A stretch of DNA of 64,000 nt. It comes from Candidatus Marinacidobacterales bacterium (GTDB taxonomy: Bacteria > Acidobacteriota > Vicinamibacteria > Marinacidobacterales > SMYC01). The notes under the pieces are model-generated. The model did not search any database and was not told the origin of the DNA. It saw nothing but the letters and a program-made list of their open reading frames with translations. The position numbers were made by a program, and so were the translations under genes. Positions 37,180-64,000 of this stretch are shown here, one piece after another. Position 1 is the stretch's first letter. Every line of letters starts with the position of its first letter. Where the stretch lies: the NCBI GenBank assembly GCA_965237955.1, contig OZ250169.1:1696001-1760000 (forward strand), given 5' to 3'.

Positions 37180-37572
37180 TCACGACTCGCGAGCGGCGAT
37201 CCGTTGACGAAACCAGATCGTGAGCGGCTCGATGTCGATGTTCCCGCGAGCGACCTCCATGGTGACGTCCTCGAGCTCCTTCGGTGTGATGTTGGCGGTC
37301 CAATCATTCAGTTCGATGAACACGAGAGCCGCGTGTGCGCCGACGCGTTTGTTTCCGTCAACGAACGGATGATTGGCGACGAGCGCGTGCATCAGGGCAG
37401 CCGCCTTCGCCGCCACGTCGGCATACAAGTCCTCGCCGCCGAATGTCATCGCTGGTCGCGCGATCGCGGCGTCGAGCGCCCTTGAATCCCGGCATCCCGC
37501 GCTTCCGCCGTAGTATTCGATCTGAACTCTGTGGAGCTCCTCGATCTGCTCGATCGAGAGACAGAGGATCAC
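37180..37572 (-). CDS. doc: Doc-family (Fic fold) toxin
   Basis: HPFVDGNKRVG motif; GTG start overlaps the antitoxin stop. Confidence 0.9.
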   Translation of the reverse strand: MILCLSIEQIEELHRVQIEYYGGSAGCRDSRALDAAIARPAMTFGGEDLYADVAAKAAALMHALVANHPFVDGNKRVGAHAALVFIELNDWTANITPKELEDVTMEVARGNIDIEPLTIWFRQRIAARES

Positions 37573-37817
37573 TATTTCGCCAGTTTCTCGAACGCCTTGT
37601 CGTATTTCTTTCGAACCCTTTCTGCGACCCGCTCGAATCGGTTCGTGACCTTGCCATCTTCGAAGTACTTCACGCCGGCTCGGATGATGACCGCGCCCGT
37701 TGTCGGATGGATGGCGACGTCGACCGATTCTCCCTTTTGGAGCTCGAACTCCTTGACGATTTCGGCGGGCAATGTCACGGCGAGTGACTGGCCGATCTGC
37801 ACCAGTTTTCGCTTCAT
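37572..37817 (-). CDS. AbrB/MazE-family antitoxin
   Basis: RKLVQIGQSLAVTLP; C-terminal KYDKAFEKLAK; directly upstream of doc. Confidence 0.88.
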   Translation of the reverse strand: MKRKLVQIGQSLAVTLPAEIVKEFELQKGESVDVAIHPTTGAVIIRAGVKYFEDGKVTNRFERVAERVRKKYDKAFEKLAK

Positions 37818-37875
37818 ATATATTTAATACGGTTCTCCTGTCGTTTCGGGGGATCTGATTTGTGTTGGAGGGCAT

Positions 37876-38190
37876 GGCCTATGGACGCTGCCGCGATTGT
37901 GGAAAACGCCGGAAACTCCGGGCGAGAGAGGCGTTTAGGGAAAGGTTGTGAGCACGTACAAACGTGGAGCGGCGTTTTCCACAATCGCTTGGAAAACGCT
38001 TCGCGTTTTCCACGAGCGCCCACAGGCCCCTCCTGATATATATACAAGAAAGATTAATTCATATGGAATAAGGAAGGGGGGGCTCGATTAGTGGAGGCTA
38101 TGGAAAACGCCCTTCCAGGCTTCGAAGAGAACTCAGTCGTGAGCAAGGTCTGAACGACCAGAACCGTGGGGGCGTTTCCCACAGCCTTGT
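37876..38190 (-). ncRNA. Candidate structured element (two homologous hairpin modules) in the ISL3 leader
   Basis: 19-bp perfect stem 37893-37911/37970-37988, 10-bp stem 37990-38012, closing stem 37876-37889/38015-38028, second module ~38095-38188; mismatches are G-U on the minus strand. Confidence 0.45.
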
Positions 38191-38253
38191 CTCCCGCTGA
38201 GGGGCAGTGGCATTTGGTGAGGCCCGTGGGTTGAGAGGGTAAGCCATGTGTAG

Positions 38254-39531
38254 ATGCGCATCGGCGAGAACGCTAGAATCTTTTTTTCCGAAAGAGAAAA
38301 GAGCGTTCCCGCGATGCGCGTTACTACGTTAGTCAACAAGCTCATCGGATTGCAAGGCCTGTGGGTCCGAGGTTTCCACTTCCAGGCGGACAAAGCCAGA
38401 GTGGTGGTGGATGTAGTACCACGGAGGAGGAAGCCTCTGTGCGGGATTTGCGGACGAAAGGTCCGCAAGAACAAAGATCGCTACAATCGCTACTGGCGGC
38501 ACTTGGACCTGTTCGGAGTCCGGACCTATCTTCGCTACTCGATCCGACGAGTGGTATGTCGGCGGTGTGGAGTGGTCAGAGAAAAGGTGCCTTGGGCCGA
38601 CAAGGGAAGCCGCTTTACCAAAAGCTTCGAACAAGAGGTAGCGTGGCTGGCACAGAGGACGGACGTCAGCGCCGTAGCGAACTATTTCCGAGTGACGTGG
38701 CGTTCGGTGCGACGGATCATCCAGCGAGTGGTTGCCGAGCAGCGGGATGAGCGGCGCGAGCTCGATGGATTGCGGGTGATTGGGATGGACGAGATCAGCT
38801 ACCGCAAACGCCACAAGTACTTAACAGTGGTAATAGACCATCTCAGCGGCCGGGTCGTCTGGGCGGGAAAGGAGCGCAAGGCCAAGACGCTGCTGCGGTT
38901 TTTCCGCAAGCTCGGACCACAAAGAGCCGCGGAGCTCGAAGCGGTCAGCATGGACATGTGGGAGCCGTACATAACTGTCGTCGGCAAAAAGGCTCCTCAG
39001 GCACGGGTGATCTTTGACCGCTTCCACATCGTCAAGCATCTGAACGAGGCCGTGGATAAGACCCGGCGCGAGCTGGTGCGCGAGCTCAAAGGGACTGCCC
39101 GGCGCAACCTCAAGAACACCAAGTTTCCCCTTCTCAAGGCCAAACACAACCGCAGCGCGAAAGACAAACGGGTGCTCCGCGAGCAGGTGCGAGCTAATCG
39201 TCGCCTCTACCGCGCCATGCTTCTGCGCGACGACTTCATGGACCTCTACACCTACAAAACCGAGACATGGGCCAAGAAGTTTCTCCGAGGATGGCTGCGG
39301 CGCGCTATGAGCTCGAGGATAGAGCCCGTCAAACGCGCGGCGAAGATGAGCAGCCACTTCGATGGCGTCATCGCGTGGGTCACGTGGAGACTCAGCAACG
39401 GCCGACTCGAAGGAATGAACAACAAAATCAGGCTGCTGAGCCACCGCAGCTTTGGACTCCACTCTGCCGAAGCTCTCATCAGTCTCGTCTACCTAAACTG
39501 TGGCGGTCTCACCCTCGAGAGGATCCACTGA
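38254..39531 (+). CDS. ISL3 transposase (start may be 38314)
   Basis: Zinc finger CGICG...CRRCG, IGMDE, VSMDMWEPY, FDRFHIVK, SNGRLEGMNNKIR. Confidence 0.95.
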   Translation: MRIGENARIFFSEREKSVPAMRVTTLVNKLIGLQGLWVRGFHFQADKARVVVDVVPRRRKPLCGICGRKVRKNKDRYNRYWRHLDLFGVRTYLRYSIRRVVCRRCGVVREKVPWADKGSRFTKSFEQEVAWLAQRTDVSAVANYFRVTWRSVRRIIQRVVAEQRDERRELDGLRVIGMDEISYRKRHKYLTVVIDHLSGRVVWAGKERKAKTLLRFFRKLGPQRAAELEAVSMDMWEPYITVVGKKAPQARVIFDRFHIVKHLNEAVDKTRRELVRELKGTARRNLKNTKFPLLKAKHNRSAKDKRVLREQVRANRRLYRAMLLRDDFMDLYTYKTETWAKKFLRGWLRRAMSSRIEPVKRAAKMSSHFDGVIAWVTWRLSNGRLEGMNNKIRLLSHRSFGLHSAEALISLVYLNCGGLTLERIH

Positions 39532-39724
39532 AATGGCAGGAGAGGCTTTAATACTAACTATCTGGCTGAAGCGCAAGTGCGGAGGGCTGGAAGTGTCCAG
39601 GCCAGCGTGGCGAAAACAGGGCGTCTGGTGTGGTGAAAGCCCCTCATTGCGGCGCACATCGAAAGTCGGGCTCCGGCGCTAGGATTGGGGCGGAATCGAA
39701 TCCAACCAGAACCGGGGGGAAGTC

Positions 39725-52107: not shown

Positions 52108-52369
52108 CTAGTCCCCTGTATCAGAACAAACTAGATAAAGCAGAGCTTGCCGAAACCATTCTAAGTGCATGAATCTTATGAATATTATGGGCTGGCGAAA
52201 AGCCTAACTTTGTATAGTAATCAAAGATCCAGGGGACTAGTCCCCTGTATCAGAACAAACTAGATAAAGCAGAGCTTGCCGAAACCCTTCTAAGTGCATG
52301 AATCTTATGAATCTTATGGGCTGGCGAAAAGCCTAACTTTGTATACTAATCAAAGATCCAGGGGACTAG
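52108..52369. mobile_element. Tandem pair of 125-bp MITE-like elements bounded and separated by CTAG
   Basis: CTAG at 52108, 52237, 52366 (129-bp period); terminal IR TCCCCTGTATC / GATCCAGGGGA; AT-rich; copies differ at 3 positions. Confidence 0.8.
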
Positions 52370-62705: not shown

Positions 62706-64000
62706 GGTTCTCCTGTCGTTTCGGGGGATCTGATTTGTGTTGGAGGGCATGGCCTATGGACGCTGCCGCGATTGTGGAAAACGCCGGAAACTCCGGGCGA
62801 GAGAGGCGTTTAGGGAAAGGTTGTGAGCACGTACAAACGTGGAGCGGCGTTTTCCACAATCGCTTGGAAAACGCTTCGCGTTTCCCACGAGCGCCCACAG
62901 GCCCCTCCTGATATATATACAAGAAAGATTAATTCATATGGGATAAGGAAGGGGGGGCTCGATTAGTGGAGGCTATGGAAAACGCCCTTCCAGGCTTCGA
63001 AGAGAACTCAGTCGTGAGCAAGGTCTGAACGACCAGAACCGTGGGGGCGTTTCCCACAGCCTCGTCTCCCGCTGAGGGGCAGTGGCATTTGGTGAGGCCC
63101 GTGGGTTGAGAGGGTAAGCCATGTGTAGATGCGCATCGGCGAGAACGCTAGAATCTTTTTTTCCGAAAGAGAAAAGAGCGTTCCCGCGATGCGCGTTACT
63201 ACGTTAGTCAACAAGCTCATCGGATTGCAAGGCCTGTGGGTCCGAGGTTTCCACTTCCAGGCGGACAAAGCCAGAGTGGTGGTGGATGTAGTACCACGGA
63301 GGAGGAAGCCTCTGTGCGGGATTTGCGGACGAAAGGTCCGCAAGAACAAAGATCGCTACAATCGCTACTGGCGGCACTTGGACCTGTTCGGAGTCCGGAC
63401 CTATCTTCGCTACTCGATCCGACGAGTGCTATGTCGGCGGTGTGGAGTGGTCAGAGAAAAGGTGCCTTGGGCAGACAAGGGAAGCCGCTTTACCAAAAGC
63501 TTCGAACAAGAGGTAGCGTGGCTGGCACAGAGGACGGACGTCAGCGCCGTAGCGAACTATTTCCGAGTGACGTGGCGTTCGGTGCGACGGATCATCCAGC
63601 GAGTGGTTGCCGAGCAGCGGGATGAGCGGCGCGAGCTCGATGGATTGCGGGTGATTGGGATGGACGAGATCAGCTACCGCAAACGCCACAAGTACTTAAC
63701 AGTGGTAATAGACCATCTCAGCGGCCGGGTCGTCTGGGCGGGAAAGGAGCGCAAGGCCAAGACGCTGCTGCGGTTTTTCCGCAAGCTCGGACCACAAAGA
63801 GCCGCGGAGCTCGAAGCGGTCAGCATGGACATGTGGGAGCCGTACATAACTGTCGTCGGCAAAAAGGCTCCTCAGGCACGGGTGATCTTTGACCGCTTCC
63901 ACATCGTCAAGCATCTGAACGAGGCCGTGGATAAGACCCGGCGCGAGCTGGTGCGCGAGCTCAAAGGGACTGCCCGGCGCAACCTCAAGAACACCAAGTT
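62706..64000 (+). mobile_element. Second ISL3 copy, truncated by window edge; transposase from 63129
   Basis: Near-identical to the sequence from 37831 (offset 24875); about 5 substitutions seen by eye. Confidence 0.96.

Follow-up and report, generated by a model that had tools for sequence, protein, structure and literature searches.

Some insertion sequences (ISs) carry a structured non-coding region at one end, as in the bridge RNA of IS110 and the omegaRNA of IS200/605, and several families (IS3, IS21, IS256 and ISL3) use copy-out transposition with a replicative step. Folded DNA is also the basis of the A site of the ABC primosome, reportedly described by Masai et al. in 1990. According to PMC6127211 and PMC3105425, DnaA bound to the A site hairpin in SSB-coated single-stranded DNA (ssDNA) loads DnaB, and primase and polymerase III then copy the strand; ssi sequences are known on the plasmids R6K, R100, ColE1, ColE2 and RSF1010 (sections of PMC7690428). 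The unwinding system (BUS) of the chromosomal origin, oriC, consists of a pair of DnaA boxes, a spacer of ~4 bp and DnaA-trios of sequence 3'-GAT-5' (excerpts of PMC8287927), whose central adenine can be replaced by cytosine in vitro and in vivo (excerpts of PMC10721633 and bioRxiv 10.1101/2022.03.18.484894).

The module described here lies in the non-coding leader of an ISL3-family insertion sequence within a stretch of 64,000 nucleotides (the whole of which is called the window). It shares with the A site, as presented there, a strand-specific hairpin predicted to form in ssDNA with a DnaA box in its stem, its own boxes being often imperfect; the A site consists of a single plasmid-borne hairpin and box, whereas the module, located in ISs, is a three-way junction in which three stems are box-like, the loops are of the GNA type and trios make up a tail. 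Tandem boxes, a GC spacer of ~4 bp, trios with an amine-bearing centre, an AT-rich tract and the polarity seen in the oriC of the phylum are shared with the BUS; as far as the sections consulted describe it (PMC8287927, PMC10721633, bioRxiv 10.1101/2022.03.18.484894, PMC6669920), the BUS acts in duplex DNA without fold-back, whereas the module combines trio-facing boxes with C at position 4 (C4), frequent C-centred trios and covarying inverted arms. Like the ssi/sso signals and Frpo of plasmids (sections of PMC7690428), which start second-strand synthesis, it is DNA that folds on one strand and lies close to functions of replication or transfer; unlike them, it has no -10/-35 boxes in its stems and occurs mainly inside ISs. 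We propose, with a probability of roughly 0.55, that module 1 of this leader is a portable three-way junction of many IS families, and likely an ssDNA landing pad where DnaA would load the helicase. The module is real and conserved, and is a candidate for a sequence of the single-strand-initiation kind.

The host element (37831..39546, plus strand; 1,716 bp) is flanked by an 8-bp target duplication (37823..37830 on the left, 39547-39554 on the right, plus), and its left 17-bp terminal inverted repeat (37831..37847, plus) matches the right repeat (39530-39546) at 13 of 17 positions. The transposase gene (38314..39531, plus) encodes zinc ribbon, HTH and DDE domains (Pfam PF14690, PF13542, PF01610), and the assignment to ISL3 is based on these domains (zinc-ribbon, HTH, DDE_Tnp_ISL3), the terminal repeats, the 8-bp duplication and AT-rich targets. 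Its first in-frame ATG is at 38254, 423 bp from the left end of the IS; the start at 38314 is likelier, and folding predicts a separate hairpin over that start codon (38256..38319, plus). The empty site was found in a contig of another run that links 37822 directly with 39547, the two sides having 8 bases in common. The genome, one contig of 8.13 Mb, contains 53 full-length copies covering 107 kb, with a perfect 8-bp duplication in 41 of them, AT-rich insertion sites without consensus, and no replichore bias (28 vs 25 copies; the skew is noisy). One further copy in the window (62706..64000, plus) is cut by the window end; its module 1 (62747-62919, minus) scores 73.8 bits with the covariance model described below. 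One scan of genome contigs returned near-identical copies exclusively, and close relatives of the element lie in Candidatus Marinacidobacterales. No circle junction was seen in the contigs of four runs, which cannot show absence.

Some variation among the copies was observed. At 39349 the window copy does not have 3 bases present in 39 of the 53 transposase copies, an in-frame allele shared by 14 copies. Three partial copies end at leader positions 420-455, in or beside the AT-rich loop of the start-codon hairpin, and a further copy is split within the AT-rich tract at leader positions 222-229, which suggests self-insertion of the element. Next to the window copy, in the region 37180-37830, lie genes for an AbrB/MazE-type antitoxin (37572-37817, minus) and a Fic/Doc protein; the IS has inserted into their promoter region, 13 bp upstream of the antitoxin gene.

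Read along the minus strand, the leader begins with an AT-rich tract (38035..38071, no strand assigned) and three degenerate DnaA-trio-like triplets with central A (38030..38038, minus), recognised by the family pattern and, in this copy only, by the published BUS rule, which form a predicted single-stranded 5' tail. Module 1 follows on the same strand: the 5' arm of the outer helix P1 (38015..38028), containing a degenerate second box and the GC-rich spacer; the core helix P2 (37990..38012), a 10-bp stem with a c(GAA)g triloop; helix P3 (37893..37988; arms 37893-37911 and 37970-37988), a perfect 19-bp stem with one consensus DnaA box, TTTTCCACA, per arm and a 58-nt loop (37912-37969); and the 3' arm of P1 (37876..37889), with 13/13 pairs if G.T is allowed. 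Module 2 (38096..38186, minus; arms 38096-38112 and 38170-38186) consists of one long hairpin whose stem shows the same box likeness and the same G.T wobble and encloses a 59-nt loop; it is a weaker member of the family (21.7 bits, E 0.008). The leader folds more stably than its shuffles on either strand, with the minus strand ahead (z -9.09 minus, -5.96 plus), and the same holds for module 1 (-4.20 and -3.83) and module 2 (-3.69 and -2.48).

The initial annotation had described about 420 non-coding bp in front of the transposase, a three-way junction of closing stem, perfect 19-bp stem and 10-bp stem, and a second module, both enclosing loops of about 58 nt; all of these sit where it had placed them, and the loop of the 10-bp stem is a GAA triloop on the minus strand. 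Its observation that the A.C mismatches of the plus-strand stems correspond to G.T pairs on the minus strand was borne out, as was the wobble at 38009, where two IS copies had been seen to differ: the base is C, giving the G.T pair, in 51 of the 53 copies, so the T of the window is the rarer allele and the G.T pair the normal state. The proposed words common to both loops are collinear, with borderline likeness (94/2000 shuffles score as well); TCCRGGC and CGTGG are present in the window copy but altered in diverged copies. Neither loop (37912-37969, 38112-38170) has a match elsewhere in the genome, and in diverged copies the loops change more than the stems. The sequence TTCCAT-N18-TATATA, taken earlier as an outward promoter before module 1, does exist; as a sigma-70 promoter it was rejected, since its -35 matches 2/6 positions, its -10 is without the last T and the promoter scan gave 0 sites. 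The spacer reads better as an AT-rich tract beside DnaA-trios.

The canonical form of the family is a three-way junction made up of a 5' tail, P1 (~13 bp), P2 (the core), one A, P3, a three-base GNC linker and the second arm of P1, and module 1 fits it with 13/13 pairs in both P1 and P3. A covariation check had been suggested on homologous ISL3 leaders. The covariation is real: in 19 canonical members, picked for the three-way-junction shape, 93.7% of cells pair (40-53% in slid controls) and 16 of the 33 pairs change on both sides, a result equalled by 0/500 shuffles. G.T is the commonest pair at the same box position in all three helices (14, 17 and 14 of the 19). Across 57 clusters, complementarity is kept without exception at both free pairs of the core (GC 41 and CG 16; AT 35 and CG 22), and the third pair is G.T in 52. 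The covariance model built from the 19 members with the window's sequence left out (R1) scores module 1 at 72 bits on the minus strand and 24.9 on the plus strand, and matches 45/151 genomes of the phylum and 4/21 close relatives. Loops range from 3 to more than 70 nt in the relatives, and we propose that the long ones are tolerated insertions, not guides.

Triloops of the type c(GNA)g are unusually stable in DNA and are not known to be so in RNA. When the loop was left free in the search pattern, GNA was found on one strand in 81/102 loci (chance, 8/64 triplets), with a free middle base (C 21, A 18, G 17 and T 1 in 57 clusters), and the other hairpins of the modules comprise 25 c(GNA)g (1.93/kb vs 0.14/kb in the flanks), 2 GNRA and 3 UNCG loops. 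Members found by the model also have loops of 4-5 nt, often T-rich, and long branched arms, so GNA is common, not required. Together with the G·T wobbles on one strand, the c(GNA)g triloops point to folding as DNA, with the caveat that a G.T pair is equally G.U, and sequence alone does not settle whether such a motif is ssDNA or RNA (a point made in part of PMC5737381). Among the three options put forward at the start (outward structured RNA, ssDNA hairpin device, nested miniature element) the evidence favours the second; the triloops are of the DNA type, GNA, and not GNRA or UNCG.

The strand opposite to the folding one reads as two box-like 9-mers, a 4-base GC spacer, repeats of C-K-R (the complement of 3'-G(A/C)(T/C)-5') and an AT-rich tract. 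Trio-like runs of at least 3 occur in 24/57 clusters (shuffles, 0.5%; reverse complements, 4%) and mostly start 4 bases after the second box; they are also present in 14 of 27 model-found loci, a proportion biased by model training. The centre of the tail triplets is A in 95, C in 100, T in 41 and G in 31. Under the strict published rule (central A), 3 trios were found in 17/57 clusters vs 11% of shuffles, and the complete BUS rule (a DnaA box with at most 2 mismatches, a spacer of at most 16 bp and at least 3 NAN trios) recognises the first window copy and not the second, as well as 20 of 300 random windows. The trios of the window are degenerate relative to the family pattern, and most module boxes are imperfect, with 2-4 mismatches to TTATCCACA.

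The origins of the phylum show the same layout. In 29 regions downstream of dnaA the commonest box is that of P3 (21 of at least 37), a C-K-R run of at least 2 is present in 12, and several read as box, 4 bases, (CTA)n and AT-rich tract in the same polarity; the host's own dnaA-dnaN origin at ~2.352 Mb, away from which the window module lies, has a box, 4 bases and four NTN triplets. These origins are without the junction: the model has 0 matches in 30 dnaA loci, and 2 GNA hairpins occur in the 29 regions. The boxes of the module are asymmetric at position 4, which is C in 76/98 trio-facing boxes (26/42 outside the core) and T (T4) in 43/47 away-facing ones, so that folding pairs the two as a G.T wobble; T is the base in 46/51 top-strand boxes of oriC. 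With two perfect boxes per copy, the ISL3 element of the window contributes 117 of the 191 TTWTCCACA sites of the genome and 117 of the 274 TTWTNCACA sites, and 117 DnaA-box-like sites in one IS could possibly act as a DnaA sink.

The search pattern, which describes the core hairpin and sets no constraint on its loop, matched 16/401 genomes of the phylum (0 for the reversed control), at least 122 metagenome stretches, 80 of which were listed, and 2 viral contigs. After dropping 10 own-genome or duplicate loci, the longest ORFs of 102 loci were tested by Pfam: 65 have a transposase or integrase, and 37 are without transposase match among the ORFs tested. The 65 comprise, reading family labels from Pfam domains, IS3 (17), unassigned rve (11), IS21 (8), IS110 (8), IS481 (6), IS256 (5), IS630 (5), ISL3 (3), IS1634 (1) and an integrase (1). 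At least eight IS families thus have the module, which may lie to either side of the transposase gene and read in either direction relative to it. Of the 53 loci whose loop is GNA, 36 have the module at the 3' end of the transposase, with the antisense strand folding in 32 and the sense strand in 4; the other 17 have it at the 5' end, where the sense strand folds in 11 and the antisense strand in 6 (the type of the window element). In 43 the module points inward from the nearer end; this mixed orientation indicates that the module is not an mRNA element.

Within ISL3 the distribution is patchy. Of 29 relatives (31-42% identity), 5 have the module in the ISL3 ends, 3 at E <1e-4 and 2 at E 0.02-0.03; two further matches were read as belonging to neighbouring elements, and some negatives are cut by contig ends. 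Since most relatives are without the module, it is not essential, and a feature of ISL3 at large was rejected on the same count (three clear cases in 29). A tree of 34 transposases, 4 of them added as carriers, needs 3 changes for the module, which within the clade of the window's element switches from the 5' end to the 3' end. A motif-like stretch in one relative (L243) was missed by the model. The 27 new model-found loci include 14 with a transposase, 1 with a RepA_C gene, 1 with conjugation genes and 11 with none of these among the ORFs tested. In the locus with conjugation genes (L290:1501-1631) the module is flanked by genes for a secretion ATPase and a TraG/TraD coupling protein, with no transposase match. 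The genome of the window itself holds a second version of the module in an IS3-type element at 991 kb (L081:3539-3725), four-armed and with the same AT-rich tail, where the orfA start points away from the remaining transposase, suggesting rearrangement. Every model match listed in this genome lies in an IS copy or in this element.

Plasmids were searched with proteobacterial-type versions of the module, which matched 45 and 40 records, and with the window leader, which gave no match. Thirteen records were opened, hand-chosen for different hosts, several of them mutually related, and in 11 the core hairpin lies 0.08-1.45 kb from a rep gene: 10 have an annotated rep and one a protein 74% identical to an annotated RepA; of the remaining two, one has no rep annotated in the stretch but shares the origin region of another record, and one is an IS end. 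Four unrelated Rep types are represented (RepA_C, RPA, RepL and a family without Pfam model), and a model match beside a RepA_C gene was also seen in one genome. Where the plasmid is of the RepA_C type, AT-rich repeats and iterons lie next to the hairpin. Most plasmid versions consist of the core hairpin only (13-35 bits), and several are without trios. Five records (L305, L306, L310, L272, L268) encode a RepA of 450-500 aa belonging to the family without Pfam model, and 3-4 GNA hairpins, almost without exception on the sense strand of rep, follow the gene within ~100 bp. In R6K (L312:25901-25960) the P3 box occurs in an arm of a hairpin ~300 bp from the iterons, where position 4 of the box forms a T.T mismatch; the covariance model gives it E 2.7, and box and mismatch position are alike by eye. 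We take this hairpin to be, probably, the A site.

The layout of the module, being like the unwinding site of the host's origin, likely lets DnaA start copying the element once single-stranded. In the mechanism that we propose, the C4 trio-facing boxes would bind DnaA poorly in duplex DNA, and no origin firing would therefore be expected there. The minus strand may become single-stranded through conjugative or transforming entry, as a displaced strand, or in the replicative step of copy-out transposition; the distal T4 arm would then pair with the proximal arm via the G.T wobble, and folding would present a box-like duplex with unpaired trios adjacent in origin polarity. From the stems, DnaA would extend along the trios and load DnaB, followed by priming by DnaG in the manner of the ABC primosome's A site; a simpler second pad would be provided by module 2. 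A broader version can be offered only tentatively, being less likely than not to hold: ISs of many families would carry a conditional origin, a fold-back copy of the unwinding site detuned in duplex by C4 and switched on by ssDNA folding (T4 via G.T beside unpaired trios), recruiting DnaA and helicase during transfer or copy-out transposition and exchanged with plasmid origins. In the window's own element the silence as duplex fails for box binding, because P3 contains two perfect duplex boxes.

These perfect boxes (117 of the genome's 191 sites), the agreement of the layout with the oriC of the phylum and the plasmid position beside iterons and AT-rich repeats would also suit a site that works as duplex, where a box cluster with trios opens the DNA near the IS end, or makes transposition, or expression of the transposase, depend on the replication cycle, the fold being secondary. 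We consider this unlikely, as compensatory changes, G.T wobbles and GNA loops are needless in duplex, the trio-facing boxes carry the non-consensus C4, and the real oriC regions do not fit the fold. The same ssDNA evidence, with the branched DNA, could alternatively reflect initiation via PriA (a primosome assembly site) or directly via DnaG (a G-site), the likeness to DnaA sites being incidental; the clusters of GNA hairpins without trios just downstream of rep genes and the ssi sequences of the plasmids named at the outset (PMC7690428, in part) are in keeping with this. Such an explanation leaves the box, the 4-base spacer and the A/C-centred triplets in origin polarity unaccounted for, and appears quite improbable.

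The initial annotation had placed an IS-encoded, guide-like RNA specific to ISL3 among its candidates, and with the IS110 bridge RNA and the omegaRNA the module does share a structured non-coding IS end and two loops of similar size. This was not supported. Leader and loops are near-invariant over the 53 insertions, and in the 52 rebuilt target sites, AT-rich and unrelated to the loops, the longest loop match averages 5.7-5.8 nt vs 6.0 in random DNA (5-7 nt for the IS ends); there is therefore no sign of a guide, nor of the covariation of loops with target sites for which a test had been suggested. A guide or bridge role of the loops was rejected on these grounds and because the module is not tied to one transposase family or sense, occurring on either strand and in IS110 elements too; the folding strand is the mRNA strand in 15/53 cases and the opposite strand in 38/53. 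A structured RNA from the minus strand acting as regulator, decoy or transposase cofactor would still agree with the strong strand-specific fold and its G.U pairs, with the AT-rich tract 5' of the fold and with the contigs of 4 RNA runs from one study that cover the leader, although these contigs carry no strand, end or level. It must be judged very improbable, given the 0 sites of the promoter scan, the absence of Rfam matches (one at E 9.8 within the transposase gene and none in the window leader region; tRNAs only in 20 homologous loci), loops that are invariant and unrelated to targets or IS ends, unrelated transposases read in both senses, and GNA triloops in place of GNRA/UNCG. The least probable explanation is a selfish miniature element hitch-hiking in the non-coding ends of ISs without helping them. 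The words GTAG and CGTC, which are REP tags, occur in the 5' tail, the spread is patchy with the end switch inside one ISL3 clade, and the 37 loci without transposase match would suit such an element; set against this, the tail is a 3-base periodic run with an A/C centre and not one tag, no terminal repeats or target duplication of its own were seen, and the module is placed beside rep genes. Short, repeated palindromes with a strand-specific fold are indeed common to the module and to REP/BIME and MITE sequences (among them an ISL3-mobilised MITE, in the part of PMC11448079 consulted), which differ in that the module does not share the IS terminal repeats and is not dispersed alone in its own genome. 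The nested miniature element of the initial annotation is likewise at odds with the absence of free-standing copies from that genome (other genomes were partly checked).

No description of the module was found in the literature searched, most subscription journals lying outside the search; it is absent from the main texts, as far as available, of PMC5737381 and PMC11109978, although it may be among the 250 mobile or repeat candidates of the latter. For the question of how IS intermediates and incoming ssDNA recruit the replication proteins of the host, a short, covarying, family-independent cis module is now at hand. If the landing pad proposed here is correct, the A site would no longer be the curiosity of one plasmid but part of a widespread class of mobile devices, DnaA-trios would occur outside origins, and folding would be a switch between a silent and an active origin. 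The concentration of 117 of the 191 consensus-core DnaA boxes in one IS bears on origin prediction and on host physiology.

Two repeats of other kinds were observed elsewhere in the window: a 129-nt tandem duplication at 52108-52365, with 98% identity between the units, and short arrays of a 7-nt unit in three places between 11210 and 27072.
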